Shown here piece after piece: positions 6,415-37,165 of a stretch of 45,139 nucleotides of DNA. The notes under the pieces were generated by a model, which ran no database searches, was not told the DNA's origin, and worked only from the letters and a program-made list of their open reading frames with translations. The position numbers were made by a program, and so were the translations under genes. The stretch comes from an uncultured bacterium. GTDB taxonomy: Bacteria > Desulfobacterota > B13-G15. How positions within the stretch are numbered: the stretch's first letter is position 1; every line of letters starts with the position of its first letter. Location: positions 1-45,139 of the forward strand of contig CBEVRB010000001.1 in NCBI GenBank assembly GCA_965552155.1, in the 5' to 3' direction.

Positions 6415-6415
6415 G

Positions 6416-6730
6416 GTGAAGGAGAGGCCTAACTTCGAAGAGATAGACGCGGCCCGCAAGCTCCTCGGCCTCGGGGAGGAGGCCACCTTGGAGGAGATCA
6501 AGGGGAGCTATCGGCGGCTCTCGCGCAAATATCATCCTGACCTCTGCCAGGAGGAGAAAAAGGTTTGTGAGGAGATGATGCGAAAGATCAACCGGGCCTA
6601 TGAGACGCTGATGTCCTATGTCCGAAACTACCGCTTCTCCTTTCGCGAGGAGGACGTTCGAAGGAGCGATCCAGAGGAGCCCCTTCGGAGGTTCTACCGC
6701 GATTGGATGTGGGGAAAGGAGGCGAAGTGA
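6416..6730 (+). CDS. Small J-domain-only protein (DnaJ-like)
   Basis: J-domain helices II and III with an HPD motif (YRRLSRKYHPD...MRKINRAYETL). There is no Zn-finger or C-terminal client domain. I prefer GTG 6416, directly after the larA-like stop and behind GGGAGGGA. The track start at ATG 6368 would overlap the larA-like gene by 47 nt. Confidence 0.7.
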   Translation: MKERPNFEEIDAARKLLGLGEEATLEEIKGSYRRLSRKYHPDLCQEEKKVCEEMMRKINRAYETLMSYVRNYRFSFREEDVRRSDPEEPLRRFYRDWMWGKEAK

Positions 6731-6731
6731 G

Positions 6732-7100
6732 ATGCCGGGATGGGGCAGGAGGGGCTCCGAAGGGAAATGGGGAAGGGCGACCTCCTTCTCCCCGGAGTTG
6801 AGTCGGGAGGAGAAGATAGCCCTTCTCAAGGAGAGGATAGAGGCGATAAAGGAGGAGCTGCAATGGCTCGACAGGAGGATCTCCTGGCTCACCGAGCTGG
6901 GGAAGACACAGCCGGCCTCCTTTCGGGTCGCCGTCCAGCAGGAGAGGTGTCGGGGATGTGGCATCTGTGAGGAGGTCTGCCCCCAGGGGGCGATCCGCGT
7001 GAGGGAGGTCGCGGTGATTGACCAGAGCAGGTGTGTAGGGTGCGGCATCTGTGTGGAGGAATGCCCCCACGGCGCCCTTTACCTTAAGGCTTACCGGTAA
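6732..7100 (+). CDS. 2x[4Fe-4S] ferredoxin with an N-terminal Gly/Arg-rich and coiled-coil extension
   Basis: CRGCGICEEVCP and CVGCGICVEECP motifs. The N-terminal part, MPGWGRRG...EEKIALLKERIEAIKEELQWLDRRISWL, is reminiscent of DUF5320. ATG 6732 sits 1 nt after the J-domain stop. The track start at 6618 overlaps the J-domain gene. Confidence 0.75.
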   Translation: MPGWGRRGSEGKWGRATSFSPELSREEKIALLKERIEAIKEELQWLDRRISWLTELGKTQPASFRVAVQQERCRGCGICEEVCPQGAIRVREVAVIDQSRCVGCGICVEECPHGALYLKAYR

Positions 7101-7101
7101 A

Positions 7102-8064
7102 ATGGGGAGGGAGCACGTACCCAAGGGACTCCTGCTGTTGAAGGACATCATCCTTGAGCGGGGAGGACTCTTTACCCCGAGGATCCGTTCCTCCTGGGCC
7201 GAAGGGCTGGATCTGCCCAGGGAGGGGGAGAGGCTCCTCTTTGCAGGTTGCGGGTACCAGCTCCTCGGGGAGACCTCGCTCCTTCTCTCCGCGGCCTCCC
7301 GGGGGGAGGAGGTGGGGATGGAGTGGGAAAGGGCGTTAGATCTGTTTTCCCCATTGGTGGGGGTGGGGATGAGGGCCGCGGAGTTGCTTCTGGCCTTCCG
7401 AGGGGATAACACCTCTCCCCTGCGGGCAGCTGTTCGGGTCCTGGAAGGGATGGGATATGAGGTCGCCTATCTGGGGGAGGAGGAACCCTGCTGTGGGGGT
7501 CCCCTCTACTTTGCGGGTTTCAGGAGGGAATTCGAGGGGGTGAAGGAGAGGTTGAGAGAGGCCCTCCTTCGGAGTGGCTCCAGGGAGGTGATCGGGGCGG
7601 TACCCTCCTGCACCTACGCGATAAAGGAGCTCGCTCAGGTGCCTTTGGAGGTGAAACACCTCGTGGAGGTCTACGCCGAAGGGATGGGAGGGGGGAGGTG
7701 GCGTCTGCCTGAACCGAAGAAGGTGGTCTATCATGATCCCTGTATCCTCGCCCGCTACCTGGGGGTGGTGGAGGAGCCGAGGAGGGTGCTCGAGGCGATA
7801 GAGGGGGTGGAGCTTGTGGAGGCCCCCTTGAGTCGTGAATGGGCCACCTGTTGTGGAGGCGGAGGGGGGTTCGAGTTCGTCTTCCCTCAGGTGAGCCTCC
7901 TTCTGGCCAAAAAGAGGGCGGAGGAGCTCCTGGGGACAGGGGCGGAGGTGATCGTGACCGCCTGCCCCGGCTGCCTGATCCAGTTGAGGAAGGGGGTCAA
8001 GGCCCTGGGCAGCAGTGCAGAGGTCCTCGATATGAGCGAGATCCTGCTCGAGGCGCAGGCATAA
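7102..8064 (+). CDS. (Fe-S)-binding CCG-domain protein, LutA/HdrD/GlcF-like
   Basis: Two cysteine-rich CCG domains (EEPCCGGP...; YHDPC...ATCCGGGGGF...TACPGC). ATG 7102 lies 1 nt after the ferredoxin stop. Confidence 0.8.
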   Translation: MGREHVPKGLLLLKDIILERGGLFTPRIRSSWAEGLDLPREGERLLFAGCGYQLLGETSLLLSAASRGEEVGMEWERALDLFSPLVGVGMRAAELLLAFRGDNTSPLRAAVRVLEGMGYEVAYLGEEEPCCGGPLYFAGFRREFEGVKERLREALLRSGSREVIGAVPSCTYAIKELAQVPLEVKHLVEVYAEGMGGGRWRLPEPKKVVYHDPCILARYLGVVEEPRRVLEAIEGVELVEAPLSREWATCCGGGGGFEFVFPQVSLLLAKKRAEELLGTGAEVIVTACPGCLIQLRKGVKALGSSAEVLDMSEILLEAQA

Positions 8065-9257
8065 TGGAGTTCAGGGAGTACAAAAAGAGGCTCAACAGGG
8101 TGGCCAAGGAGGGGAGGGTAGCCCTGGCCATAGGAAGGGCCCAGAGCAGCTACCGGAGGAACCTCCAGGAGGCCTTCCGTCGCTTCCCCCACACCCCGGA
8201 GCTCGCCAGGGAGGTCCGGAGGATAAAGGAGGAGTCCATCTTGAGGATGGAGGAGCTGGTGGCTTCGGCCAGGGAGGCGATGGAGTCAAACAGTGTGAAG
8301 ACCTTCCTCGCCCGGGATGCGGAGGAGGCCCGGAGGATAATCGGGGAGATCTGCGGCACGGGGAAGACAATCGTGAAGGGAAAGAGCATGACCTCCGAGG
8401 AGATAGACCTGAGGGAGTTCCTGGAAGGGGAGGGAAACGAGGTTTACGAGACGGACCTCGGGGAGTTCCTGGTACAGCTCCTGGGTATAAAGCCGATGCA
8501 CCTTTTGGCTCCGGCGGTCCACCTGACCCGGGAGGAAGTGGCCGAGCTCTTGAGCCGCCACCTCGGCAGGAAGATCCCGCCCCGGATAGAGGAGGAGGTG
8601 GAGGCGGTAAGGGGCTTCCTCAGGGAGAAGTTCATCTCGGCGGATGTGGGGATCACGGGGACGAACGTGATAGCGGCGGACACCGGGGCGATGGTCCAGA
8701 TAGAGAACGAGGGGAACGTGCGTCTGGCAAGCTCCCTGCCTCCCGTTCACATAGTGCTGGTGGGCATAGAGAAGGTGGTCCCCACCTTCCAGGACGCGAT
8801 GAAGGTGGCGGAGGTGACCTGGCGTTACGCCAACTATACGGTACCCGCCTACGTGAACGTGGTCTCAAGCCCCAGCAAGACGGGAGACATAGAGAAGGTG
8901 ACCACCTATGGGGCCCACGGCCCAAGGGAGCTTTACTGCATCTTCCTCGACGGGGGCAGGAGTCGCCTCGCCCAGATGCCCCGCTTCCGGGAGGCCCTCT
9001 ATTGCCTGAGGTGCGGCGGCTGCCTCTACGAGTGTCCCCTCTTCAGCCTGGTGGCGGGGAACTTCGGGGATCGCTACCTCGGGGGAATAGGGGCGATCTG
9101 GACGGCCTTCGTTACGGGAGGGCTGAAGGAGGCAGCCCCCCTGATCTACAGTTGCCTTGCTTGCGGCAGGTGCAAGCTCCGCTGCCCCATGGAGATAGAC
9201 ACCCCGGGCATGTGCCTTGAACTTCGCAGGATCATCGCCGAAGGAGAAGAGGAATAA
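8064..9257 (+). CDS. LUD-domain iron-sulfur protein, LutB-like
   Basis: The N-terminal two-thirds resembles the LUD/DUF162 fold. The C-terminus has CLRCGGCLYECP and CLACGRCKLRCP cluster motifs. ATG 8064 overlaps the upstream TAA (TAATG). The track start at 7839 is an out-of-frame overlap extension. Confidence 0.78.
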   Translation: MEFREYKKRLNRVAKEGRVALAIGRAQSSYRRNLQEAFRRFPHTPELAREVRRIKEESILRMEELVASAREAMESNSVKTFLARDAEEARRIIGEICGTGKTIVKGKSMTSEEIDLREFLEGEGNEVYETDLGEFLVQLLGIKPMHLLAPAVHLTREEVAELLSRHLGRKIPPRIEEEVEAVRGFLREKFISADVGITGTNVIAADTGAMVQIENEGNVRLASSLPPVHIVLVGIEKVVPTFQDAMKVAEVTWRYANYTVPAYVNVVSSPSKTGDIEKVTTYGAHGPRELYCIFLDGGRSRLAQMPRFREALYCLRCGGCLYECPLFSLVAGNFGDRYLGGIGAIWTAFVTGGLKEAAPLIYSCLACGRCKLRCPMEIDTPGMCLELRRIIAEGEEE

Positions 9258-23601: not shown

Positions 23602-23847
23602 ATGAACGAGGAAGAGAGGAAAGGAGAAGGGAAGAAAAAGGGGAAAGGGCGGCAGAGGAGATATAGGATCGACGTCTTCCAGGCCTGGTGCAAGAGGTGT
23701 GGGATATGCGTTGCCTTCTGTCCCCAGGGGGTGCTGGAGAAGGACGAGATGGGCTATCCCGTGCCGGTGAGGATCGATGAGTGTGAGGGGTGCATGTGGT
23801 GCGAGTTGCGCTGCCCTGACTTCGCCATAAGCGTGCTGGAGGAATAG
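23602..23847 (+). CDS. korD: 2-oxoacid:ferredoxin oxidoreductase delta subunit (2x[4Fe-4S])
   Basis: CKRCGICVAFCP and CEGCMWCELRCP motifs. First gene of a four-subunit OFOR operon. Confidence 0.8.
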   Translation: MNEEERKGEGKKKGKGRQRRYRIDVFQAWCKRCGICVAFCPQGVLEKDEMGYPVPVRIDECEGCMWCELRCPDFAISVLEE

Positions 23848-23851
23848 ATAG

Positions 23852-24985
23852 ATGGAAGGGGAGGTTCTCCTTCAGGGAAACGAGGCGGTGGTGGAAGGGG
23901 CCCTGGCTGCGGGCTGCAGGTTTTACGCCGGCTACCCGATAACCCCATCCACGGAGATCGCCGAGGCGATGGCCAGGCGCCTTCCCCAGCTCGGGGGCGT
24001 CTTCATCCAGATGGAGGACGAGATCGCCAGCATCGCCGCGGTGATCGGGGCATCCCTGGCAGGGGCCAAGGCGATGACCGCCACCTCAGGTCCTGGATTC
24101 TCCCTCATGCAGGAGAACCTGGGGTTTGCCTGTGTGGCCGAGGTCCCCTGCGTGGTGGTGGACGTGATGAGGGGCGGCCCCTCCACCGGTTTACCCACCT
24201 CCCCCTCCCAGGGGGACGTAATGCAGGCTCGCTGGGGGACCCACGGGGATCATCCCATCATCGTCCTCTGCGCCTCTTCGGTGGCCGAATGCTTTCACCT
24301 AACGGTCCGGGCCTGCAATCTCTCGGAGAAGTACCGGACCCCGGTGATCCTGCTGCTGGATGAGGTGGTGGGCCACATGAGGGAGAAGATCCGCATCCCC
24401 CCCCCAGAGGAGATCGAGATCGTCAACCGTCCCCGTCCCACCATGCCCCCTGAATGGTACATCCCCTACGAGAACACCCCCTCAGGGGTTCCTCCCATGG
24501 CCCCCTTTGGGGAAGGGTACCGCTATCATGTGACGGGCCTGATCCACGACATAAGGGGGTTCCCCACCTCGAGGCCCGACGAGATAGGGCCTTTCTTCGA
24601 GAGGCTCTTCAGAAAGATAAGCCGAAACTTCGCCGACATCCATTCCTCCGAGGCCTTCCAGGTGGAGGATGCGGAGGTGGTGGTGATCGCCTATGGCTCT
24701 GTAGCTCGCTCGGCCAAGAGGGCGGTCTTAGAGGCTCGAAGGGAGGGGATCCGAGCGGGGCTCCTCAAGCTCCTCACCATATGGCCCTTCGAGAAACCGG
24801 CCGTGGAGAGGGTGGCTTCCAGCGCCCGGGTCCTCCTGGTGCCGGAGATGAACATGGGACAGATATCCCGGGAGGTGAAGAGGGTGAATCAAGGGCGGGC
24901 CAGAGTAGTGACCCTCAACAAGTTGGACGTCACGCTGATCACTCCCCAAGAGATCCTCGAAAAGATAAAGGAGGTGCTCGGATGA
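23852..24985 (+). CDS. korA: 2-oxoacid:ferredoxin oxidoreductase alpha subunit (2-oxoglutarate type by subunit sizes)
   Basis: GNEAVVEGALAAGCRFYAGYPITPSTEI signature and the transketolase-like domain II. Substrate specificity is not determinable from the sequence. Confidence 0.85.
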   Translation: MEGEVLLQGNEAVVEGALAAGCRFYAGYPITPSTEIAEAMARRLPQLGGVFIQMEDEIASIAAVIGASLAGAKAMTATSGPGFSLMQENLGFACVAEVPCVVVDVMRGGPSTGLPTSPSQGDVMQARWGTHGDHPIIVLCASSVAECFHLTVRACNLSEKYRTPVILLLDEVVGHMREKIRIPPPEEIEIVNRPRPTMPPEWYIPYENTPSGVPPMAPFGEGYRYHVTGLIHDIRGFPTSRPDEIGPFFERLFRKISRNFADIHSSEAFQVEDAEVVVIAYGSVARSAKRAVLEARREGIRAGLLKLLTIWPFEKPAVERVASSARVLLVPEMNMGQISREVKRVNQGRARVVTLNKLDVTLITPQEILEKIKEVLG

Positions 24986-25821
24986 AGGAGGTCACCAAGC
25001 TCATCCACAAATATCTCCGGCACGACAAGAAGTTTCCCCATGTCTGGTGTCCGGGCTGCGGCATAGGGATCGTGCTCGGTGCCCTGATAAGGGCGATAGA
25101 TCGGCTCGGGCTGAGCAAGGACGAGATAGTCCTCGTGTCCGGCATAGGCTGCTCGGGGAGGATGCCCGCGTACGTCGACTTCAACACCCTGCACACCACT
25201 CACGGTCGCGCCCTCGCCTTCGCCACGGGGATAAAGCTGGTGAAGCCCAACCTCAAGGTGATAGTAGTGATGGGCGATGGGGATGCCCTCGCCATAGGAG
25301 GGAACCACTTTATCCACGCCGCCCGCAGAAACGTGGACCTCACCGCCATCATCATCAACAATCACATCTACGGGATGACCGGAGGGCAGTTCTCCCCCAC
25401 TACCCCTTACGGGATGAGGGCGACCACCTCTCCTTACAAGAACATAGAGCACGCCTTCAGGATAGCGGAGCTGGCGGTCACCGCCGGGGCGGTCTTCGTG
25501 GGGAGAGGAACGGTCTATCACGCCCGGATGCTCGATTCCCTGATAGAGAAGGCGATCAAGAAGCAGGGGTTTGGGGTGGTGGAGGTGATGAGTCCCTGCC
25601 CTGTTCAGTACGGGAGGATAAACCGGCTGGGCGATGCGGTCCAGATGATGAAGTGGCAGAAGGAGAACGCCGTCACAGTGGAGCGGGCGAAAAGGCTTCC
25701 GCCCGAGGAGCTGGAGGGGAAGTTCGTGATCGGGGTCCTCGTGGACAGGGAGCTTCCCATCTATCAAGAGGAGTACGAGAAGGTGATCGCCATAGCTCAG
25801 GGGAGGGGTGATGGTGGATAG
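24982..25821 (+). CDS. korB: 2-oxoacid:ferredoxin oxidoreductase beta subunit (TPP-binding)
   Basis: WCPGCG, SGIGCSG and GDGDALAIGGNH TPP/Mg motifs. ATG 24982 overlaps the korA stop (ATGA). The track start at 24454 is an out-of-frame overlap extension. Confidence 0.88.
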   Translation: MKEVTKLIHKYLRHDKKFPHVWCPGCGIGIVLGALIRAIDRLGLSKDEIVLVSGIGCSGRMPAYVDFNTLHTTHGRALAFATGIKLVKPNLKVIVVMGDGDALAIGGNHFIHAARRNVDLTAIIINNHIYGMTGGQFSPTTPYGMRATTSPYKNIEHAFRIAELAVTAGAVFVGRGTVYHARMLDSLIEKAIKKQGFGVVEVMSPCPVQYGRINRLGDAVQMMKWQKENAVTVERAKRLPPEELEGKFVIGVLVDRELPIYQEEYEKVIAIAQGRGDGG

Positions 25822-26407
25822 ATATGAGGTGAGGCTCAGCGGCTTCGGGGGCCAGGGGCTGATCCTGATAGGGATCATCCTGGCGGAGGCAGTGGGGCTC
25901 TATGAGGGAAAGAACGTGGTCCAGACCCAGAGCTACGGCCCTGAGGCAAGGGGTGGGGCGAGCCGTTCCGAGGTAGTGATAAGCGACGGGGAGATAGATT
26001 ACCCGAAGCCAATGAAGCTTGACCTCCTTTTGGCCATGAATCAGCAGTCCCTCGACCTCTACTCCAGGGATTTGAAGGAGGGGGGGATCGTGGTGGTGGA
26101 CTCCACCTATTGCCACCAGGTCACCATCCCCAGGGCCATAAAGATCCCCTTCACCAGAATAGCCAGGGAAAAGCTGGGCAGGGAGATCGTGGCCAATATC
26201 ATCGCCCTGGGAGCGATATGTGAGATCACGGGGTTGGTGAAGGAGGAGAACCTGAAGAAGGCGGTCCTTGATCGCATCCCCAAAGGGACGGAAGAGCTGA
26301 ACGTGAAGGCCCTGGAGATCGGGATGAAGCTGGGGAAGAGGGCGAAGGAGGAACTGGTGAAGAAGGGGGAAGATGATTATATTGTGGTTGAGGCCACGGA
26401 GGTGTAG
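25811..26407 (+). CDS. korG: 2-oxoacid:ferredoxin oxidoreductase gamma subunit
   Basis: SGFGGQGLILIG...QSYGPEARGG signature of OFOR gamma domains. Confidence 0.85.
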   Translation: MVDRYEVRLSGFGGQGLILIGIILAEAVGLYEGKNVVQTQSYGPEARGGASRSEVVISDGEIDYPKPMKLDLLLAMNQQSLDLYSRDLKEGGIVVVDSTYCHQVTIPRAIKIPFTRIAREKLGREIVANIIALGAICEITGLVKEENLKKAVLDRIPKGTEELNVKALEIGMKLGKRAKEELVKKGEDDYIVVEATEV

Positions 26408-28555: not shown

Positions 28556-29254
28556 TCAGACGAGGAGATACTTCTTTCTCACCTCCTCGTTCTCCCTCAG
28601 GTCCTGGATGGTCCCGTGGTAGCGGATCTGTCCGTTATCGATGATGTATCCACGATCGCTGATCCTCAAGGCCGATCTCACGTTCTGCTCGGCCAGAAGG
28701 ACAGTCAGCCCCGCTTCCTTCAGCCTCAGGATCTGTTCCTCCAGGGCTTGCACCAAGACTGGGGCCAGCCCCTCCATAGGTTCATCAAGCAACAACAGCT
28801 CCGGATTTGTCATGAGGGCCCTGGCGATGGCCAGCATCTTCTGCTCGCCCCCACTCAGGCATCCTCCCCTCCGGTCCCTGATCTCCTTCAGGGCCGGAAA
28901 GAGTTCATAGACCCTTTCCCTGCTCCATCCATCGCCGTCCCTTCGGCGCTCGGCTATCTCCAGGTTCTCCTCCACCGTTAGGTCAGCGAAGATCCGCCGG
29001 TCATCAGGCACATAGCCTATCCCCTTCCGGGCTATCCGGTAGGGCTCAAGCCCCGTTATCTCCTCCCCCTTGAAGATGATCCGCCCCTCACGGGGCGGCA
29101 CCAGCCCCGCGATGCTCTTCATGGTGGTGGTCTTCCCCGCCCCGTTCCTCCCTAAGAGACAGACCACCTCCCCCCGCTCCACTTTAAGCGACACACCGAA
29201 AAGTATGTGGCTCAGCCCGTAATAGGTATGAATTCCATTCACCTCGAGCATCAC
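28556..29254 (-). CDS. livF: Branched-chain amino acid ABC transporter ATP-binding protein LivF-type
   Basis: GRNGAGKTT, LSGGEQKMLAIARAL and LLLLDEP motifs, with the characteristic LivF C-terminus. Confidence 0.88.
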   Translation of the reverse strand: MMLEVNGIHTYYGLSHILFGVSLKVERGEVVCLLGRNGAGKTTTMKSIAGLVPPREGRIIFKGEEITGLEPYRIARKGIGYVPDDRRIFADLTVEENLEIAERRRDGDGWSRERVYELFPALKEIRDRRGGCLSGGEQKMLAIARALMTNPELLLLDEPMEGLAPVLVQALEEQILRLKEAGLTVLLAEQNVRSALRISDRGYIIDNGQIRYHGTIQDLRENEEVRKKYLLV

Positions 29255-29985
29255 TCTTCTCCCAGGTAGGCCTCCTGAACCTCTTTGTTCGCCCGCACCT
29301 CCCCTGGAGGGGCCTGGATCAGGGTCCGCCCCTGGTGCATGACCATGATGCTGTTGGCTATAGAGAAAACTATCTCCATATCGTGTTCGCAGAAGAGGAT
29401 GGTCAGATCCCTGGTCTCTGCGAGGCGCCTTATCAGCTCGATGGTCGAGGCCGTCTCCTCTGGCGACATCCCCGCGGTGGGCTCGTCCAGGATCAGAAGC
29501 TCCGGCTCGTTCCCAAGAGCGATGGCGATCTCCAATACTTTCTGGTCCCCGTGAGAGAGGGTGCCGGCGATCTCCGAGGCCTTGTCCTCGAGGCCCACCG
29601 CTTCAAGGAGCTCCATCGTCTCCCTGACGGCCATCCTGCGGGCCGTCTCCAGCAACCGGGAGCTCTTGCCCCTGTGGGAGAGGACCGCCACTTGAACGTT
29701 CTCGAAGACGGTGAGACGATGAAAGATGTTCACGATCTGGAAGGATCGGGCGATCCCCTTCTTGCAGATCTTATAGGGGGGGAGGCCCGTAATATCCTCC
29801 CCCTTGAAGACGATCCGCCCTCCGTCGGGCTTAAGCTGCCCGGTGATCAGGTTGAACAGCGTGGTCTTCCCCGCACCATTGGGACCGATCACCGCCACGA
29901 TCTCTCCCCTCTCCACCACCAGGTTCGCCCTGTCCACCGCCTTGAAATCACCGAAGGATTTCTCCACCGCCTCGACCTTGAGCAT
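29251..29985 (-). CDS. livG: Branched-chain amino acid ABC transporter ATP-binding protein LivG-type
   Basis: GPNGAGKTTLFN, LSHGDQKVLEIAIAL and LLILDEPTAGM motifs. Confidence 0.88.
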   Translation of the reverse strand: MLKVEAVEKSFGDFKAVDRANLVVERGEIVAVIGPNGAGKTTLFNLITGQLKPDGGRIVFKGEDITGLPPYKICKKGIARSFQIVNIFHRLTVFENVQVAVLSHRGKSSRLLETARRMAVRETMELLEAVGLEDKASEIAGTLSHGDQKVLEIAIALGNEPELLILDEPTAGMSPEETASTIELIRRLAETRDLTILFCEHDMEIVFSIANSIMVMHQGRTLIQAPPGEVRANKEVQEAYLGEE

Positions 29986-30941
29986 TACCCTTCGCCTCCC
30001 CTTGCCAGTTCTCTCTTCCCTGGACCGAGTTTCTCCAAGACGAATCCCATCACCCCTTCAGGCAGGAAGAAGATGAGGAAGATCAGGATGACTCCGAGGA
30101 TGAGGGTCCAGTACTCGGTGTAGATGCCGACGAAGGTCCTCAGGGAGACGATGATGGCCGCCCCGAGGATGGGCCCCGCGAAGGTGAACCATCCCCCCAG
30201 CAGGCACATGATGAAGATCTCAAGAGACAGCACCCAGAAAAGAAGGTCGGGAAAGACGGAGCCCTCCAGTACCACGAAGAGCACCCCTGCCACCCCTGCG
30301 AAGAAGGTGGCGATGACGATGGCGGCCAACTGATGACGCCTCACGTTGACCCCCACCGCCTCACAGCGCTCAGGGTTATCCCTTATAGCCTGCAGGGTAC
30401 GCCCAAAGGGGGAGTTGACGATGCGGTAAAGCAGATAGAGGGAAACGATGAGCACCGCCAGGATGAAGTAATAGGAGCTCTTCAAAGAGGAGATGAAGTC
30501 CGGCATCGGGATCCCGTGGATGCCGTCATCCCCCCCTGTGAAGCTGTACCAGCGGAAGACGATGGCCCAGATCAGGGACCCCAGCGATATCTGGAGCATC
30601 CCGAAGTAGAGCCGTGTGAGCCTCACGCAGAATCCACCGATCAAAAGTCCCGTTATCGCCGCCGCCACAGGGCCCGCCGCGAAGGCCACCCAGGCCGGAA
30701 GCTTCGTCTTGGTGAGGATGAGGGCCACGGTGTAGGCGCTCACCCCGTAAAAGACCCCGTGGTGGAACTGGAACATTCCCCCGTAACCCACGGTGATGTT
30801 CAGGCTCATGGCGAGGAGGGCCGTCACGAAGATCAGGGCAATGATGTAGGTGTAAAAACGGGGCAGTACAAAGGGCAAAAGGAGCAGTACCCCAACGATT
30901 ACTGCCACCGAAGGCCATTGCCATTTACCTCTCCACTGCAA
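29985..30941 (-). CDS. livM: Branched-chain amino acid ABC transporter permease LivM-type
   Basis: Polytopic membrane protein of the LivH/LivM family, located between livH and livG. Confidence 0.85.
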   Translation of the reverse strand: MQWRGKWQWPSVAVIVGVLLLLPFVLPRFYTYIIALIFVTALLAMSLNITVGYGGMFQFHHGVFYGVSAYTVALILTKTKLPAWVAFAAGPVAAAITGLLIGGFCVRLTRLYFGMLQISLGSLIWAIVFRWYSFTGGDDGIHGIPMPDFISSLKSSYYFILAVLIVSLYLLYRIVNSPFGRTLQAIRDNPERCEAVGVNVRRHQLAAIVIATFFAGVAGVLFVVLEGSVFPDLLFWVLSLEIFIMCLLGGWFTFAGPILGAAIIVSLRTFVGIYTEYWTLILGVILIFLIFFLPEGVMGFVLEKLGPGKRELARGGEG

Positions 30942-30955
30942 GGCTCAGATACTCC

Positions 30956-31840
30956 TTACCAAACTGACTTGAGCAACCCTCTGGGCTTCAGCAGTAGCAC
31001 GGTCACCACCGCTGCGTAGGGGAAGACGATGGCGAACTGGGGCCAGAGGAGCACGCCGAAGGCCTGGGTCACCCCGAAGATCAGCGACCCCACCAGGGCC
31101 CCCCACATGTTGCCGAGGCCGCCAATGGTGACTATGAGGAATGCTTCGATGATGATGTCGTGGTCCATCCCCAGGGTGATGCTTACCGTGGGGGCGACCA
31201 GCGCCCCCCCAATCCCTGCGAGATAGCATCCCAGGACGAAGGCCGCCGCAAAGACCCAGCTCACATTGATCCCCAGGGCCCCCACCATCTCCCGATCCAC
31301 CGCCGCAGCGCGGCAGATCTTCCCCATTTTTGTCCGGTTGGTGAAGAGCCAGAGGAAGACCGCCACCAAAGGACCCACCACCAGGAGAAAGAGGTTGTAC
31401 TTTGGGAATGCCGAGCCAAAGATCGAGACCGAACCTTTGAGTCCGCCAGGGGGCATGATGGAGCTGTACTCCGGCCCCCAGACCATCTTTACCAGGTCCC
31501 CCAAAATCAGCATCAGGGCGAAGGTGAAGAGCAGGAGCATCAGGTGTTCCCTCTCGTAGAGGTGGCAGAAGAGGACCCTCTCGGCCACGAAGCCCACCAG
31601 GGCCACCACCAGAGGGGCCAGGAGCAACGCGAACCAGAAGCCTGTGGAGCCCATTCCAAAATAGGTATAGATGCTGAAGGCGGAGAAGGCCCCGATCATG
31701 TAAAGCGATCCATGGGCCACATTGGGTACCCGTAGCACCCCCAGGATGAAGCTCATGCCCGCCGAGACGATGAAGAGGATCATCGAACGGCTGAGGCCGA
31801 CCAGCAACTGGGTACATAAGGATGCTGCATCAAGGCTCAT
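30956..31840 (-). CDS. livH: Branched-chain amino acid ABC transporter permease LivH-type
   Basis: Polytopic permease of the LivH/LivM family. Its length and position are typical of LivH. Confidence 0.85.
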   Translation of the reverse strand: MSLDAASLCTQLLVGLSRSMILFIVSAGMSFILGVLRVPNVAHGSLYMIGAFSAFSIYTYFGMGSTGFWFALLLAPLVVALVGFVAERVLFCHLYEREHLMLLLFTFALMLILGDLVKMVWGPEYSSIMPPGGLKGSVSIFGSAFPKYNLFLLVVGPLVAVFLWLFTNRTKMGKICRAAAVDREMVGALGINVSWVFAAAFVLGCYLAGIGGALVAPTVSITLGMDHDIIIEAFLIVTIGGLGNMWGALVGSLIFGVTQAFGVLLWPQFAIVFPYAAVVTVLLLKPRGLLKSVW

Positions 31841-31873
31841 CGTCTTTCGTCTCCAGGTTCAGGACAAGGGAAA

Positions 31874-31902
31874 GGGGGCGGGAACCTTGGTTCCCACCCC
31901 CC
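31874..31902 (-). other. Intercistronic GC-rich stem-loop between livK and livH
   Basis: GGGGGCGGGAACC / GGTTCCCACCCCC form a 13-bp inverted repeat with one G-U position and a minimal loop, starting 12 nt after the livK stop. No U-tract follows. Confidence 0.6.
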
Positions 31903-31913
31903 TCAGCATCCTG

Positions 31914-33146
31914 CTACTTCTTTACCTTAGCCCTGAGGGCCATTATCTCTTCACAGGAGGGCATGATCTCAGGACCCGGAAGGGTCACGATGTCCGATGA
32001 GATCAGGAAGTTGTATTTAGGAGATTTCTTGGTCACGCCGAGGAACATGGGCTCCACCACCTGATGATCGCACGCCCGCATCTCGATCTCCCCCACCGGG
32101 CTCATGATTTTCAAACCCTCCATGGCGTCGATGAACTTCTCGATATCCACCTCCCCGGCCTTCCTGTAGGCGGCGGCGATGAAATGGGCGGTGTTCCAGC
32201 CATGGAAGGCGGGGAATCCAGGGGGTTCACCGTAGGCCGCCCTGAAGGCCTCCACAAAGGCCCTGTTCTCAGGGGTGTCGGGATAATAGAAATGGTAGTC
32301 CATGGTGCCCATCACCCCTTCGGGGGCCTCCGGTCCCAGGGGCTTGAGAGACGCGTGATCGGTGGCCGTGTGGATGCAGATGGCCACCTTCTTGGCCATA
32401 CCTGTGGCCTTTATGGCCTTGAGCACGTTGGTCATGCTTCGGCCGCCGGTGCAGAAGATCACCGCGTCGGGCTTGGCGGACATGATGGCTGTAAGGTAAG
32501 GAATCAGGTCGGGCTCGCCCACCTTCCACCAGGACTCGCCCACCTTCTTCACCTCGGGCTTGAGCTTCTTCAGGTTCCGCCAGGCGGCCCTGCCTATGGC
32601 GTGGCCGTACTCGTAGTCGTCACCGGCGATCCAGTACTTGACGTAGGGCTTCTTGGAAAGGCCGACCGCCATGGCCTTACCCGCCATGGCCGTATTCTCA
32701 CTGGTGCAGAAGACATACCGGTGACCCAGCTCCCCGGTGATCCTCTCGCTCTTGGAGATCCAGACGATGAAGGGGACCTTCTCCTTGCGGGCGAGGTCCG
32801 ACACCGCCAGGGCCACGGAGCTCGAGATGGTCCCGACCAGCAGGTCGACCCTCTCCCTCATTATCAGCTCCTTCGCCATGCTCAGACCGATGTCCACCTT
32901 GAACTTGGTGTCACGGGTGGTGAAGACGATCTTCCGCCCCAGGACCCCCTTCTTGTTGATCTCTTTTAAGGCCAGCTTGAAGCCATTAAGGGCATCCTTG
33001 GCGTAGACCGCCGGCGGACCACTGTAACAGTCGATGATCCCCACCTTGATCACCTTGCCCCCTGCCCAGGCAGCAGGGGCCAAGGCCAGAAGGGAAGCGA
33101 TAAGGACTGAAAAGACCAACAAAAAACCCCTCCCTCTGTACCTCAT
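31914..33146 (-). CDS. livK: ABC transporter periplasmic amino-acid-binding protein (LivK/LivJ family)
   Basis: Signal peptide ending AWAGG, then IKVGIIDCYSGP... type I periplasmic binding fold. First gene of the liv operon. Confidence 0.85.
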   Translation of the reverse strand: MRYRGRGFLLVFSVLIASLLALAPAAWAGGKVIKVGIIDCYSGPPAVYAKDALNGFKLALKEINKKGVLGRKIVFTTRDTKFKVDIGLSMAKELIMRERVDLLVGTISSSVALAVSDLARKEKVPFIVWISKSERITGELGHRYVFCTSENTAMAGKAMAVGLSKKPYVKYWIAGDDYEYGHAIGRAAWRNLKKLKPEVKKVGESWWKVGEPDLIPYLTAIMSAKPDAVIFCTGGRSMTNVLKAIKATGMAKKVAICIHTATDHASLKPLGPEAPEGVMGTMDYHFYYPDTPENRAFVEAFRAAYGEPPGFPAFHGWNTAHFIAAAYRKAGEVDIEKFIDAMEGLKIMSPVGEIEMRACDHQVVEPMFLGVTKKSPKYNFLISSDIVTLPGPEIMPSCEEIMALRAKVKK

Positions 33147-33272: not shown

Positions 33273-33794
33273 TCATCTGAAGGACGATATCCCCCTCTCT
33301 ATCGCCTTAAGGTTGACTTCCTTGAAGGCCGGAGGGCTCAGGGATGAAACGACCTCCTTCAGTTCCCCTTCCGAGAAGGGAAGGGCTCCTGCAGAGATAG
33401 CGAAGCCGAGCAGAGCCAGATTTGCCACCCGGGGATTATCGAGCTCTGAGGCGATCCTGTCGGAATCCACCCTGTACACCTTCACCCCTTCCAGAGGCGG
33501 CAACTCCCGGGCATTTATTACCGCCACTCCACCCTCCTTCAGCATGGAGAGGTTCCTGAGCCCTTCCTCCCTCTCGAGACCAAGGAGCAGATCGGCCCTT
33601 CCCCTTTTGACCAGGGGACTGTAGAATCGGCCGATCTTCAAATGGGCGAGGACTGATCCCCCCCTCTGGCTCATCCCGTGGGTCTCTGAGCCGAAGACCG
33701 CCTCGCCCCTCCGGTGGGCCATCTCGTAGATGACCCTCGAGGTGAAGAGGACCCCCTGACCTCCGACGCCGGCTATAACTATCTGTAGTTTCAT
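33273..33794 (-). CDS. iorB: Indolepyruvate:ferredoxin oxidoreductase beta subunit
   Basis: MKLQIVIAGVGGQGVLFTSRVI...ETHGMSQRGGSV is the IorB/OFOR-gamma signature. The ATG overlaps the iorA stop (ATGA). The track start at 34004 is an overlap extension. Confidence 0.85.
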   Translation of the reverse strand: MKLQIVIAGVGGQGVLFTSRVIYEMAHRRGEAVFGSETHGMSQRGGSVLAHLKIGRFYSPLVKRGRADLLLGLEREEGLRNLSMLKEGGVAVINARELPPLEGVKVYRVDSDRIASELDNPRVANLALLGFAISAGALPFSEGELKEVVSSLSPPAFKEVNLKAIERGISSFR

Positions 33795-36700
33795 CCCCTT
33801 ATCGCCCCCTGATGGCAGGCGTAAACGCATACGCCGCAGTCCACACAGGTCATCCTGTCTATCTCCACCTTCCCCTCGTTCATCACGAGGGAGGGACAGC
33901 CGAATTCCGAAAGGCAGTACCCGCACCCCACGCACCCCTCTGCAACGGGCATGGAGATGACGCTCCGGGGACAGGCCACAGCGCAGAGGCGGCAGAGGGT
34001 GCACCGCTCCCCATCCACCTGATAGGACCCATCGACTTTCCTTATCGCCCCTTCAGGGCAGGACAGGAGGCAGAAATCGCACCCGGTGCAGCTCCCGCAA
34101 TGGAAGCACCGCTCTCGTGCCTCCCTTATCGCCTCCTCCTCGGTGATCCCTCCCTGGATCTCCTGAAATCCCCTGGAGGCCTCCTCAGGGGACAGCCTGG
34201 GGGCTTCTGGCCTCCTCCCCTTGGAAAAGAAGCTCAACTCTATCGCCTCAAACGGGACCTCCTCCTCGATCCTCACCGAGGGACCCGCCACCTCCTCCCC
34301 GGAGAGGAATCTGTGGATGGCCAGGGCCCCCTCTCTTCCTGCCCCGATGGCATGGGCCACGCTCCTTGTAGAGGAGGTGAAGTCCCCCCCTGAAAAGACC
34401 TTTCCCTCCTCCGTAAACCCCTCAGGCAGAAGGGAGAAGTCTGCCTCCTCCCCCACGGCGACGATCACCCCGTCCACCTCAATGGAGAACTCGGAACCCT
34501 CAACGGGCTGGACCTCCCGGCGCCCTTCTCTGTCCTGCTTCCCGGGGGTCATCCGCACAAGCCTCACCTCCCTCACCCGCCCCTCCCCTATGAATTCCAC
34601 GGGGGAAAGGAGGAACTCCATCTTCACCCCTTCGGCCAAGGCCTCCTCGACCTCGCCCGGATGGGCGGGCATATCCTCCCTCCTCCTCCGGTAAAGGAGG
34701 AGAGGGTTTGCCCCCAACCTCAGAAGAGAACGAGCCACATCTATGGCGGTGTTCCCGCCTCCTATGACCGCCACCTTCCCCCTCACCTCCGGGGGATCGC
34801 CCTCATTCAGGGCCCTCAAGAAATTTATTCCCCGGTAAATCCCCGGGAGGTCCTCCCCCGGGATGCCCAGGGGGCGGGGACGCTGGGCTCCTGGGGCGAG
34901 GAAGACGGCATCGTAACCTCTCAGCTCCTCAAAGGGCATGTCCCTCCCCACCCTGACCCCTGTTCTTATCCTCACCCCCAGGGATTTGATCCTCTCTATC
35001 TCCTGCCTCAGGACCTCCTTGGGCAGGCGATAGGGGGGGATACCATAGCGGAGGAGTCCCCCTGGCTCGGGCATCGCCTCAAAGACCTCCACCTGATAAC
35101 CCAGAAGGGCCAGGTGGTAAGCACAGCTGAGCCCTGATGGCCCTGCTCCCACCACCGCCACCCTCCGGCCGTTCACCTCCCCCTTTTCGGGCACATACCC
35201 GATCGCCTTATCTCCCAGGAACCTCTCCACCTGGGAGATGGATATCGGTTCATCGAATTGCCCCCTGTTGCAGGAGGATTCGCAGGGGTGAAAGCAGACC
35301 CTTCCACACACCGCAGGGAAGGGATTGGTGAGGAGGAGACTCCTTGAGGCCTCCTCCGTCTTCCCCTCGGCCACAAGGGCCAGAAAGCCTTCTACGTCAT
35401 TTCCTGCGGGGCAGGCCTTGTTGCAGGGAGGGGTCTTCTTCTCATAAACGGGCAGAAGGGCCGTTCTTTCGAGGGGAGCCCTAAGGGGGTGGACCTCGAC
35501 CCTCCGCCTCTGCTCCACCCCCTTGGTCAACTGCACGCAGGGATGGCGGGCGATCACCACGGCCACCTTCCCTCTACTATGGCACGATCGGTAGGCCTCC
35601 CTCACCGCCCCTATCATCCGGGGGACATCGTAGGGGTCAACTACCTCAATATGGTCCACCCCGCACCCCTTAAGGGCCCTTTCCAAAGGGATCGGCTCCC
35701 CGGGTCTGCCGTCAGCCAGTTGGTCCACCGCTGGGGTCGGCTGCATCCCGGTCATGGCCGTGGTTCCGTTATCCAGGATCACCAGCACGAACCTCGCTCC
35801 TGTGTGCACCGCATTGAGGAGGGCGGGCAGCCCGGCGTGGAAGAAGGTGGAATCGCCTATGGAGGCGACGATGGGAACCTCTTCCCCGTCCTGGACGAAG
35901 GCCTCCCAGAGCCCTGCCGCCATGTTGATGGCCGCCCCCATATCGAGGACTATATCCACCGCCCCCTGGTTCAGCCCCAGGGTGTAGCAGCCGATGTCGC
36001 TGGTGAAGATCGCCTGGGGAAAGGCCCGCTTGATGGCATAGAAGGAGGCCCGGTGGGGACAACCCGGGCAGAGGGTGGGGGGCCTCTCGGTGTAGGAGGT
36101 GAGGGAGAGGGGCTCCTTCCTCGGAGGCCTCTTTCCCTCCCAGACTTGCAAGAAGGCCTCCTCGATCACCTCTGGGGTGAGTTCCCCCGCTGATGGAACG
36201 GTCCCGTCGAGTCTCCCCCTCACCCTCCCCTTTTCCGGGATCAGGAGCTCCAGGGCCGCATCCGGTTCCTCGAGTATCAGGATCTGATCGCAGCTGCGGA
36301 GAAAATCCAGGAGGAGTTCAAAGGGAAAGGGAAAGGGGGTGGCAACCTTAAAGAGGGGCACCTCCAGCTCCAGTTCCTCCAGTAACTCCTTCATCGTCCC
36401 GAAGCAGCTCCCTGCAGCTATCACCCCGAGGGGAAAAGGCCCTCGGGAGGGATCAAAGGGCCGCCCACCGATGAAGGCACCGTTGAAGGGGGCGTTGACG
36501 TACTCCCGCCTTATCGCCTCCAGCTTCCGGTTCAGTTCCTGATGGAGCCTGTACCTCCAGCGAGGGGTAGCGGCCCAGCGCCTCGGGTCCTTTTCGAAGC
36601 GGGCCTTCCTCTTGGGTCCCTTCACGGGGCCGAAGGTTATGGTCTGACGGGCATGACAGATACGGAGGGTGGGACGAAGGAGGACCGGGATCTCATATCT

Positions 36701-37165
36701 CTCCGAAAGGGCGAAGGCATAGGGAACCATTTCCTTCGCCTCCTGGGGGCTTGAGGGATCGAGCACCGGGACCTTGGCCATGGGCCCCCAGAGGCGGGAA
36801 TCCTGCTCGGTCTGGGAGGAGTGAGGGCCAGGATCGTCGGCGGCGATGATCAGGAACCCCCCCTTCACACCAGTGTATAGGGAGCTGAAGAGGGGGTCTG
36901 AAGCGACGTTAAGCCCCACCTGCTTCATGGCCACGGCCGCGCGCTTACCCGCATAGGCGGCCGCCAAGGCCACCTCAAAGGCGACCTTCTCGTTGGTAGA
37001 CCACTCGATGTATATCTGCGCACCTTCCTCTTCCCTGAAACGGACTAAGGCGGGCAAGATTTCCGTGGCAGGAGTTCCAGGGTAGGAAGCCATCACCTGA
37101 CAGCCTCCTTCGAGAAGACCTCTCGCTATCGCCTCGTTTCCCAGAAGGACCCTCTTTGTCGTCAT
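33791..37165 (-). CDS. iorA: Indolepyruvate:ferredoxin oxidoreductase alpha subunit with an internal GltD/NfnB-like FAD/NAD(P)H oxidoreductase module and extra [4Fe-4S] domains (1124 aa)
   Basis: - aa 1-560: IorA core (GNEAIARGLLEGG...SYPGTPATEI; TPP part CPGCPHR...GDSTFFH...LDNGTTAMTG).
- aa ~575-955: GltD-like module (CNKACPAGNDV, CGRVCFHPCESSCNRG, VAVVGAGPSGLSCA, GGLLRYGIPPYRLP, VAVIGGGNTAIDVA, GGDF).
- aa ~1020-1066: two additional CxxCxxCxxxCP motifs.
- aa ~1077-1120: IorA-type C-terminal ferredoxin (CVGCGYCLSEFGCP...CVDCGVCVYAC). Confidence 0.85.
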   Translation of the reverse strand: MTTKRVLLGNEAIARGLLEGGCQVMASYPGTPATEILPALVRFREEEGAQIYIEWSTNEKVAFEVALAAAYAGKRAAVAMKQVGLNVASDPLFSSLYTGVKGGFLIIAADDPGPHSSQTEQDSRLWGPMAKVPVLDPSSPQEAKEMVPYAFALSERYEIPVLLRPTLRICHARQTITFGPVKGPKRKARFEKDPRRWAATPRWRYRLHQELNRKLEAIRREYVNAPFNGAFIGGRPFDPSRGPFPLGVIAAGSCFGTMKELLEELELEVPLFKVATPFPFPFELLLDFLRSCDQILILEEPDAALELLIPEKGRVRGRLDGTVPSAGELTPEVIEEAFLQVWEGKRPPRKEPLSLTSYTERPPTLCPGCPHRASFYAIKRAFPQAIFTSDIGCYTLGLNQGAVDIVLDMGAAINMAAGLWEAFVQDGEEVPIVASIGDSTFFHAGLPALLNAVHTGARFVLVILDNGTTAMTGMQPTPAVDQLADGRPGEPIPLERALKGCGVDHIEVVDPYDVPRMIGAVREAYRSCHSRGKVAVVIARHPCVQLTKGVEQRRRVEVHPLRAPLERTALLPVYEKKTPPCNKACPAGNDVEGFLALVAEGKTEEASRSLLLTNPFPAVCGRVCFHPCESSCNRGQFDEPISISQVERFLGDKAIGYVPEKGEVNGRRVAVVGAGPSGLSCAYHLALLGYQVEVFEAMPEPGGLLRYGIPPYRLPKEVLRQEIERIKSLGVRIRTGVRVGRDMPFEELRGYDAVFLAPGAQRPRPLGIPGEDLPGIYRGINFLRALNEGDPPEVRGKVAVIGGGNTAIDVARSLLRLGANPLLLYRRRREDMPAHPGEVEEALAEGVKMEFLLSPVEFIGEGRVREVRLVRMTPGKQDREGRREVQPVEGSEFSIEVDGVIVAVGEEADFSLLPEGFTEEGKVFSGGDFTSSTRSVAHAIGAGREGALAIHRFLSGEEVAGPSVRIEEEVPFEAIELSFFSKGRRPEAPRLSPEEASRGFQEIQGGITEEEAIREARERCFHCGSCTGCDFCLLSCPEGAIRKVDGSYQVDGERCTLCRLCAVACPRSVISMPVAEGCVGCGYCLSEFGCPSLVMNEGKVEIDRMTCVDCGVCVYACHQGAIRG

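Follow-up and report, generated by a model that had tools for sequence, protein, structure and literature searches.

The window analysed here is a stretch of 45,139 nucleotides (nt) from an uncultured bacterium of the Desulfobacterota (GTDB lineage B13-G15; contig CBEVRB010000001.1 of assembly GCA_965552155.1). It carries a gene, termed iorA* below, whose predicted product joins the large subunit of an indolepyruvate ferredoxin oxidoreductase (IOR) to an inserted flavin- and iron-sulfur (Fe-S)-binding module of the kind found in GltD and NfnB. From the listing of open reading frames (ORFs) and the translation, iorA* is one uninterrupted, ATG-initiated frame of 1124 codons, as a first-pass annotation made from the DNA letters had stated; its strand, which that annotation did not give, is minus. 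From the cofactor sites described below, we favour the hypothesis that the enzyme passes electrons from a 2-oxoacid directly to NADP+.

An IorA protein with a large insertion

Searching the 1124 amino acids (aa) of the translation against Pfam, we found POR_N (aa 16-198, E 5.7e-12), TPP_enzyme_C (aa 405-530, E 8.5e-13), Fer4_20 (aa 577-654, E 5e-19; 68.6 bits, cut-off 25.8), Pyr_redox_2 (aa 668-913, E 1.7e-23; 83.9 bits, cut-off 26.1) and two 4Fe-4S dicluster units of the Fer4 kind (about aa 1025-1070 and aa 1076-1117), which are all the families for which the first-pass annotation had proposed a profile search. Among the NCBIfam models, TIGR03336 (IOR_alpha) matches aa 4-556 (E 6e-193), and PRK12771 ('NAD(P)-binding protein') matches aa 570-1073 (E 1.7e-159) over profile positions 39-563 of 566, with 532-534 bits, above its curated cut-off of 516. 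The whole-protein score for TIGR03336, 642.4 bits, falls below the curated cut-off of 650.9 because the insertion splits the match; the core by itself scores 596.6 bits (positions 2-544). This core consists of the POR_N domain, domain II and the thiamine pyrophosphate (TPP)-binding domain, with a GDS...DN motif at aa 437-466, and canonical bacterial IorAs are 48-57% identical to aa 1-544. Our homologue set comprised the 120 best-scoring clusters at 90% identity, and all conservation counts refer to these. G437, D438 and D465 of the Mg-TPP motif are invariant in all 120, as are C366, C369, C393 and C543, the ligands of the TPP-proximal [4Fe-4S] cluster.

As controls for the insertion, about 70 canonical IorA genes, encoding roughly 610 aa, were fetched from genomes; the genome scan with full alignment used IorA-wide peptides and returned mostly canonical IorAs, together with nine new fused loci. 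The canonical proteins align in one frame to aa 1-544/558 and to about aa 1070-1122 of the window protein, with about 15 aa between the two segments, and therefore aa 545-1069 (nt 33959..35533) are extra. The insertion of about 525 aa starts right behind the fourth ligand of the TPP-proximal cluster, C543. When scanned by themselves, the last 59 aa of the protein match IOR_alpha best (TIGR03336 positions 550-595 of 595), while the ferredoxin unit before them matches PRK12771 best (positions 506-556). The first-pass annotation had described a GltD/NfnB-like FAD/NAD(P)H module with extra ferredoxin units, lying inside IorA rather than at an end, between a normal core and a displaced C-terminal ferredoxin. 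The Pfam, TIGR03336 and PRK12771 matches and the canonical IorAs that align on both sides bear this description out; only the extent of the insert, given there as about nt 34120..35443, has to be revised. The terminal ferredoxin unit (Fd2; CVGCGYCLSEFGCP...CVDCGVCVYAC, aa 1078-1117) keeps its eight cysteines (C1078, C1081, C1084, C1090 and C1107, C1110, C1113, C1117) in 119-120 of the 120 homologues. At the other end of the insert, P572 and P580 are invariant despite the variable junction linker. The window protein thus shares with canonical IorAB enzymes (TIGR03336/TIGR03334; archaeal examples are cited in PMC13285125) the POR_N domain, domain II, the TPP domain, the four TPP-proximal cysteines, the C-terminal 2x[4Fe-4S] unit and an adjacent iorB, and differs from them by the flavo-Fe-S insertion between the TPP and ferredoxin domains and by its predicted acceptor, NADP+ rather than ferredoxin.

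The gene is real and conserved, and the enzyme class is widespread. An identical 1124-aa protein is called on contigs of three different assemblies, and the 90% cluster of the window protein holds at least eight copies of 1122-1124 aa. All 120 best clusters of homologues run to nearly full length, with a query coverage of 98-100%, an identity of 44-70% and sizes of 1103-1204 aa. They carry database names such as 'FAD-dependent oxidoreductase' or 'indolepyruvate ferredoxin oxidoreductase alpha subunit' and come from Thermodesulfobacteriota, Syntrophales, Deferrisoma/Deferrisomatales, Sulfuritalea, Rhodocyclaceae, Comamonadaceae and Rhodoferax, so that a survey of related genomes, which the first-pass annotation had suggested, finds the same architecture in many lineages. 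In one metagenome-assembled genome (MAG) at NCBI ('Deltaproteobacteria bacterium', locus tags DRG40_04115/04120), a 4.3-kb contig holds the same gene as two hypothetical proteins, RLA85660.1 (P0269, 332 aa) and RLA85659.1 (P0270, 766 aa, partial), which belong to the cluster of P0001. Because the other copies of the gene are intact, this split is probably a frameshift or an assembly error in that record. It is what speaks for an artefact, whether a chimeric assembly or separate genes read through as one, a reading to which we give practically no weight: identical copies in independent assemblies argue against a misassembled or chimeric ORF, the same junction is found in more than 120 full-length homologue clusters, and IorA-type sequence flanks the insert on both sides.

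Cofactor sites of the inserted module

The motifs quoted in the first-pass annotation are all present at the residues given: CNKACPAGNDV (aa 581-591), CGRVCFHPCESSCNRG (aa 620-635), the two Rossmann dinucleotide sites VVGAGPSGLS (aa 669-678, with GAGPSG at 671-676) and VIGGGNTAIDV (aa 799-809, with GGGNTA at 801-806), the flavin motif GGDF (aa 926-929, with GGD at 926-928) and CxxCxxCxxxCP (aa 1026-1037 and 1055-1066). In NfnB of T. maritima, the distal cluster is bound by C39, C42, C47 and C100 and the proximal cluster by C51, C90, C96 and E117 (PMC7596348). By alignment these map to C1020, C1023, C581 and C632 (distal) and to C585, C624, C628 and E647 (proximal) in the window protein; position 647, the equivalent of NfnB E117, is Glu in 73 and Lys in 47 of the 120 homologues. 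The ligands of the inserted ferredoxin unit (Fd1) are C1026, C1029, C1032, C1036 and C1055, C1058, C1061, C1065. All 27 candidate ligand cysteines are invariant or conserved in 119 of 120 homologues. The predicted inventory is accordingly seven [4Fe-4S] clusters, TPP and FAD, and the 'up to about six clusters' of the first-pass annotation has to be raised by the TPP-proximal one.

That annotation had also taken the Fe-S segment for the N-terminal one typical of GltD. A Fer4_20 segment is indeed there, but its first CxxC (C1020, C1023) follows the flavin domain, and the insert has no CxxC ahead of C581. Residues 2-43 of NfnB (...EEALEEAQRCLQCP) align to about aa 982-1024 (...EEEAIREARERCFHCG), after the flavin domain, in a weak match (i-Evalue 0.67), and StnC, Csac NfnA and Tsi NfnA likewise have their 'RCxxCG' behind the flavin domain. 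Of the stand-alone PRK12771-type proteins that we checked, none of 22 has an N-terminal CxxC, and 21 of 22 have the C..C..C..C..C...CP motif. Judged by sequence, the module is circularly permuted relative to GltD and NfnB, as in StnC and in NfnA of NfnABC, and C1020 and C1023 are putative ligands of the distal cluster. With this permutation, the ligands of the distal GltD-type cluster run directly into those of Fd1 (C1023 and C1026 are two residues apart), and those of Fd1 into those of Fd2 (C1065 and C1078 are twelve residues apart). Since the ligands are contiguous in sequence, neighbouring clusters would be forced close together in the order Fd2, Fd1, distal cluster. For the chain as a whole, from the FAD to the TPP-proximal cluster, we infer an in-line order.

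Comparing the insert with the sequences of the Protein Data Bank, we observed the best matches to Tsi NfnA (9n5u, E 1e-104), Csac NfnA (9bov, E 1e-103) and Sporomusa StnC (8oh5, E 3e-92), followed by NfnB/NfnL (4ylf, 5jca), GltD and dihydropyrimidine dehydrogenase (DPD). An AlphaFold2 (AF2) model of the protein has a mean predicted local distance difference test (pLDDT) score of 87.1 and a predicted template modelling (pTM) score of 0.75, with most of the insert above a pLDDT of 90. A Foldseek search with this model returned the same relatives in nearly the same order, with E values of about 1e-47 for NfnA/StnC and target-normalised TM-scores of 0.73-0.76 to NfnL, NfnB and GltD. In StnC and in NfnA of NfnABC, the module is spliced into a NuoG-like Fe-S protein, and its FAD binds NADPH, terminates one linear chain of clusters and is stated to be non-bifurcating (PMC10482914, PMC11829005, PMC12018979).

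These best sequence and fold matches, NfnA and StnC, resemble the window protein in being larger Fe-S proteins with a spliced-in module and in the permuted order PPCxxxCP...FAD/NADPH...linker...RCxxCG, followed by a ferredoxin-like domain. They differ in their host, which is NuoG/FdhF-like and not a 2-oxoacid:ferredoxin oxidoreductase (OFOR), in an N-terminal [2Fe-2S] domain that precedes their module (Pfam found no Fer2 domain in the window protein), in a Lys instead of a Glu on the proximal cluster and in their pairing with a NuoEF-like bifurcating core, of which the window holds none. NfnB/NfnL, GltD (2vdc, 6s6s) and DPD (1h7w) share the fold, the seven-Cys-plus-Glu ligands, the FAD and the NADPH site with its YRR motif; however, their first CxxC is N-terminal, whereas that of the window protein follows the flavin domain. 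Moreover, NfnB bifurcates only together with its NfnA/NfnS subunit, and in GltD and DPD electrons run from NADPH to a second catalytic site, opposite to the direction proposed here. DsrL, the NAD(P)H:acceptor oxidoreductase of Dsr systems, has a body like that of GltD/NfnB, a linker of about 100 aa and, at its C-terminus, a 2x[4Fe-4S] unit, and YRR marks its NADP(H) forms; it is, however, a free protein that partners DsrAB, and its positions equal to NfnB C39 and C42 are N-terminal and partly non-Cys (PMC7596348).

In NfnB, Y310-R311-R312 holds the 2'-phosphate of NADP, and the presence of YRR tells the DsrL forms that use NADP(H) from those that use NAD(H), predicting NADP(H) in DsrL-2 (PMC7596348). 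In the window protein the motif reads Y825-R826-R827, with two more Arg residues behind it, and predicts NADP over NAD. R713, the equivalent of NfnB R201 and StnC R239, is conserved in 119 of 120 homologues; the corresponding Arg is also conserved in the non-bifurcating StnC and NfnA, where it is too far from the N5 of the FAD (PMC10482914, PMC12018979). E647 and YRR occur together in 19 of 120 homologues, namely the window clade and the Deferrisomatales type. A further 54, from Betaproteobacteria, have E647 and a four-residue deletion that removes RR and leaves 'VYY----D' (alignment columns aa 822-836; e.g. P0032, P0044, P0076), the Asp of which likely reflects a preference for NAD(H) and hence a lineage-specific switch. 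The remaining 47, of the Syntrophaceae type, have K647. The NfnABC/Stn enzymes all share a Lys here, whereas the residue in NfnL is Glu (PMC10482914, PMC12018979).

Genomic context and related architectures

Table 1. Features of the iorA* locus in the window (residue numbers refer to the 1124-aa protein)
Feature	Position (nt)	Strand	Evidence
Fused iorA* ORF, 1124 aa + stop codon	33791..37165	minus	ORF listing and translation; homologues
IorA core, aa 1-544	35534..37165	minus	Pfam; TIGR03336; homologue alignment
Junction linker, aa 545-576	35438..35533	minus	Variable in length and sequence across homologues; AF2 pLDDT 61-69
Fer4_20-type Fe-S segment, aa 577-654	35204..35437	minus	Pfam Fer4_20 5e-19; NfnB ligand mapping
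FAD and NAD(P) Rossmann domains, aa 668-957	34295..35164	minus	Pfam Pyr_redox_2; PDB sequence matches; Foldseek
Linker, aa 958-1019, with a helix at its end just before the relocated CxxC	34109..34294	minus	Weak NfnB alignment; equivalent post-flavin segment of StnC/NfnA; AF2 helix 1009-1019
Relocated CxxC (C1020, C1023) and ferredoxin unit Fd1	33950..34108	minus	Ten invariant Cys; PRK12771 positions 506-556
IorA-type C-terminal ferredoxin unit Fd2, aa 1073-1124	33794..33949	minus	TIGR03336 match; alignment with canonical IorA C-termini
iorB, 173 aa, POR gamma-like	33273..33794	minus	Pfam POR 5.9e-33; start overlaps iorA* stop by 4 nt
Upstream ORF, 242/243 aa	37162..37893	minus	Stop overlaps iorA* start by 4 nt
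Promoter-like site before the upstream ORF	37926-37897	minus	Consensus match only
Liv-type ABC uptake system, downstream	28556..33146	minus	Peripla_BP_6 2.7e-76; ORF translations
Liv-type substrate-binding protein	31914-33146	minus	
Liv-type permeases	30956-31840, 29985-30941	minus	
Liv-type ATPases	29251-29985, 28556-29254	minus	

By the overlaps listed in Table 1, iorA* is translationally coupled on both sides. The best NCBIfam matches of iorB are IOR beta models, all below their cut-offs, and an iorB homologue lies directly downstream of the fused gene in 13 of the 15 fused loci that we examined. For the upstream ORF we found no Pfam or NCBIfam match; among 92 loci it occurs only in the contigs of this species and is absent from L007 and L008, the 66-67% identical relatives. 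As a dedicated partner it was rejected as a family feature, having no homologue in the other loci. The Liv-type ATP-binding cassette (ABC) uptake system is linked to the enzyme by gene order only; in L007, the closest fused relative, permease and ATPase genes likewise come after iorB. Among the window ORFs scanned or called, we found no NuoE/NuoF-like and no NfnS/NfnA-type partner.

Elsewhere in the window, on the plus strand, there is a second, ordinary OFOR set (23602-26407). Its delta subunit (23602-23847) is an 81-aa 2x[4Fe-4S] protein, its alpha subunit (23852-24985) carries POR_N/PFOR_II and its gamma subunit (25808-26407) carries POR; the ORF between the last two, presumably beta (25047-25808), gave no Pfam match in the frame tested. 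Unrelated to iorA* are the plus-strand genes at 5128-9257 for a LarA-like protein (Lar_N), a LutA-like protein (CCG domain) and a LutB-like protein (LUD + Fer4_8), which suggest a lactate-utilisation cluster.

The genes around the other fused and canonical loci were identified by cross-locus tblastn, Pfam and the supplied gene calls; greedy ORF calls gave spurious antisense ORFs in GC-rich DNA. Canonical and fused IorA alike often have a TrpB-like pyridoxal phosphate (PLP) enzyme (PRK12391, 725 bits) encoded nearby. Its genes, for proteins of about 455-463 aa (PRK12391/TIGR01415; the one in L014 scores above cut-off), lie at L004:8541-9911, L009:6313-7674, L012:6546-7922 and L015:2644-3999, and also at many canonical-IorA loci, for example L019, L037 and L040. 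We rejected this enzyme as a clue to the substrate of the window enzyme, the gene not being in the window. The fused loci of the Syntrophaceae type and some other loci also hold an aminotransferase gene. The betaproteobacterial and Deferrisoma fused loci share a three-subunit molybdenum (Mo) enzyme of the xanthine-dehydrogenase family and a family III CoA-transferase (L004:120-5397, L005:1-4957 and the upstream regions of L010 and L013), to which the betaproteobacterial loci add a 1162-1186-aa IOR-family protein (DUF6537); the set resembles clusters for anaerobic degradation of aromatic compounds or N-heterocycles. Overall, the context fits aromatic or heteroaromatic amino acid metabolism. Near the fused gene of L008 we also observed a 707-aa protein with Fer4_20, Pyr_redox_2, Fer4 and an FlpD/MvhD-like domain (L008:3074-5194, minus strand), 38% identical to the insert, adjoining a gene with a methylene-tetrahydrofolate reductase C-terminal domain (L008:2488-3129, minus strand).

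The inserted module also exists outside IorA. In the stand-alone PRK12771-type proteins, many of which are labelled '2-oxoacid:acceptor oxidoreductase delta subunit' by JGI, the first 45 aa or so (NKTGSWRxxRPxY) find their best matches in the N-terminal arm of OFOR delta subunits (VorD PRK09623 positions 9-51, PorD_Arch and PorD_KorD, E 1e-6 to 1e-4 in five such proteins). Stand-alone proteins of 581-596 aa lie between the gamma and the alpha/beta genes, that is, in the delta slot, in all three four-gene OFOR loci examined (L090:4438-8820, L091:4338-8844, L092:4435-8784), where a phosphotransacylase gene precedes the OFOR operon. From the delta-arm match and the delta-slot position, we take the module to be an OFOR-dedicated adaptor, a 'flavo-delta' subunit, and the window protein therefore to be the IOR version of a wider design, IOR already fusing alpha, beta and delta parts. 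The stand-alone proteins have the same permuted module and the same six-Cys motif, the insert covering nearly the whole PRK12771 model. They differ from the fused protein in keeping the delta arm NKTGSWRxxRP, which the fusion lacks, in being separate polypeptides of POR/VOR-type enzymes and in having one ferredoxin unit instead of two. The junction peptide (aa 545-600) matched PRK12771 positions 38-68 only, and no delta-subunit model. This flavo-delta form of four-subunit OFORs is apparently unstudied.

The K647 clade has a neighbourhood of its own. In four of five of its loci (L011:3171-6774, L014:4238-7967, L087:4222-8011 and L089:4286-7994; L088 is without NuoEF genes), the fused gene is directly preceded by genes for a NuoE-like [2Fe-2S] protein, a NuoF-like FMN/NADH protein and a 427-438-aa protein in which a HoxU/NuoG-like N-terminus ([2Fe-2S] + 2x[4Fe-4S]) is joined to a GcvH-like domain. 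Glyoxalase, TrpB-like and aminotransferase genes lie upstream of this trio, which by sequence looks like the gene set of a Bfu-type bifurcating core.

Other layouts occur as well. A library at 50% identity contains about 35 further representatives (P0122-P0168, 1050-1190 aa, 35-43% identity) with the IorA core, the module and one ferredoxin unit, and in P0136 (1005 aa; 113 members in its 90% cluster) a complete IorA is followed by the flavin module at the C-terminal end. We further noted IorAs of about 677-690 aa with two tandem ferredoxin units and no flavin domain (L068:8001-10046, L074:8001-10040, L083:8001-10031, L016:210-2282, L021:1599-3638), which could be precursors or deletion derivatives of the fusion. 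In a rough neighbour-joining tree of the IorA core, which has no support values, fused sequences form three groups interleaved with a few canonical forms, and L016, one of the two-ferredoxin proteins, groups inside a fused clade.

Proposed electron path and alternatives

Pyridine-nucleotide-linked 2-oxoacid oxidoreductases have functional precedents. In the pyruvate:NADP+ oxidoreductase (PNO) of Euglena and Cryptosporidium, an OFOR unit with a flavoprotein reduces the pyridine nucleotide; its flavin module is C-terminal, cytochrome-P450-reductase-like (FMN/FAD) and unrelated to GltD. Phenylglyoxylate:NAD+ oxidoreductase (PadEFGHI) of Azoarcus/Aromatoleum does so with separate subunits. With moderate confidence, we hypothesize that the window protein is an NADP+-reducing IOR with a linear wire of seven clusters and a non-bifurcating FAD. 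Direct NAD(P)+ reduction is consistent with the cofactor inventory, with the YRR motif and with the behaviour of the closest solved relatives.

The gene product would be the large subunit of an IOR-type, TPP-dependent, CoA-acylating 2-oxoacid oxidoreductase, the wire of which is lengthened by the flavo-delta module. The cofactor sites along the path are present and conserved in the protein; their order and their function are our proposal. A 2-oxoacid, probably an arylpyruvate, would be decarboxylated on TPP, and its two electrons would leave singly through the TPP-proximal cluster. They would then pass two clusters each in the IorA-type ferredoxin domain (aa 1078-1117) and in the inserted ferredoxin unit (aa 1026-1065), followed by the distal GltD-type cluster and the Glu-ligated proximal one. 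The FAD would gather both electrons and transfer a hydride to NADP+, acting as the one-electron/two-electron converter that ends a linear chain, as in GltD, DPD, StnC and the NfnA of NfnABC. The translationally coupled IorB would supply the gamma-like domain, as in an ordinary IOR. The predicted net reaction is arylpyruvate + CoA + NADP+ -> arylacetyl-CoA + CO2 + NADPH, which would be strongly exergonic and would not need soluble ferredoxin: with potentials of about -500 mV for the 2-oxoacid couple (acyl-CoA + CO2) and -320 mV for NADP(H), only the oxidative direction is favoured, and strongly so.

Several points count against this path. The retained IorA ferredoxin domain could still feed free ferredoxin, in which case NADP+ is perhaps not the sole or the main acceptor. 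Putting electrons of about -500 mV onto a carrier at -320 mV wastes energy, which would be odd in an anaerobe short of energy, unless the enzyme serves to make the reaction irreversible or to provide NADPH. C1020 and C1023 are putative distal-cluster ligands from the weak local alignment described above, backed by their invariance and by the analogy with StnC and NfnA, and the preference for NADP over NAD is predicted from one motif. Finally, the window lacks the TrpB-like and aminotransferase genes found beside many relatives.

The first of these points leads to the alternative that survives best, although we consider it unlikely: an enzyme with two acceptors, in which the ferredoxin domain reduces soluble ferredoxin and the flavin module serves as a built-in ferredoxin:NADP+ oxidoreductase, or in which 2-oxoacid, ferredoxin and NAD(P) are coupled by bifurcation or confurcation with a partner encoded elsewhere. 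The terminal ferredoxin domain, the normal exit to ferredoxin, retains all eight cysteines, and the NfnB-type Glu on the proximal cluster and the conserved R713 would suit such an enzyme. So would the sister clade (47 of 120), which has the Stn/NfnA-type Lys and, in four of five loci, adjoining genes of a Bfu-type core. The window, however, encodes neither a NuoEF-like nor an NfnS-like protein, only one electron path to the FAD is evident, the equivalent FAD of the nearest solved relatives does not bifurcate, and the window protein has Glu, not the Bfu-associated Lys. For the same reasons, a split of electrons between ferredoxin and NAD(P)+, which the first-pass annotation had offered as an option, is disfavoured at the FAD of the window protein; it may hold for the K647-clade relatives, through a separate FMN site.

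The path to NADP+ could also run backwards, with NADPH entering at the FAD and driving the reductive carboxylation of arylacetyl-CoA to arylpyruvate for aromatic amino acids. Anabolic roles of IOR are known in methanogens, the module is the entry port for NADPH in all characterised homologues (GltD, DPD, StnC, NfnA), and a TrpB-like enzyme and an aminotransferase adjoin many relatives. Yet this direction is roughly +35 kJ/mol uphill, without a coupling device in the locus; the TrpB-like and aminotransferase genes are not in the window, where the neighbours encode an uptake system, and we regard an anabolic function as highly unlikely. We give very little credence to a flavin module that serves no nicotinamide at all and instead, for example, reduces polysulfide, disulfide or oxygen, or senses the redox state or regulates the IOR: SudA/NfnI, a homologue, was originally reported as a sulfide dehydrogenase (PMC8097209) and DsrL-type relatives feed other acceptors (PMC7596348), but the second Rossmann fold is intact and conserved with GGGNTA and YRR, and all solved relatives bind NAD(P)H at that site.

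A broader hypothesis, which we regard as possible rather than probable, places the window protein in a large, unrecognised class of 2-oxoacid oxidoreductases in which a permuted GltD-like module, built into the delta/ferredoxin element, bypasses ferredoxin. The coenzyme would be chosen by lineage (NADP with YRR, probably NAD with the betaproteobacterial 'YY-D'). In the subclade with Lys and NuoE/NuoF/HoxU-like/GcvH genes, the IOR would form the low-potential arm of a bifurcating or confurcating complex of the Bfu type, the 2-oxoacid replacing ferredoxin in an Nfn/Stn-like reaction. A review by Vanoni lists GltD-like modules only in GltS, DPD, Nfn and AegA (PMC8097209), and the authors of the DsrL study noted, then excluded, DsrL-like genes adjoining pyruvate/ketoisovalerate oxidoreductase genes (PMC7596348). 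In full-text literature searches we found no description of an IorA/OFOR-GltD fusion or of a flavo-delta subunit, an absence from the library searched that does not prove that there is none.

Textbooks and metabolic reconstructions of uncultured anaerobes treat OFORs and IORs as ferredoxin-reducing, and pipeline labels such as 'IorA' or 'FAD-dependent oxidoreductase' hide a coupling of the kind proposed here. If our favoured hypothesis of a direct path to NADP+ is true, an IOR hard-wired to NADP+ would yield no reduced ferredoxin for Rnf, hydrogenases or bifurcating systems; it would instead make the decarboxylation irreversible and supply NADPH directly, which would change the electron and energy bookkeeping of these organisms. 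Given the replacement of the delta subunit in other OFORs and the Bfu-core neighbourhood of one clade, the fusion may therefore point to a family-wide design principle and possibly to a new type of flavin-based bifurcating enzyme.

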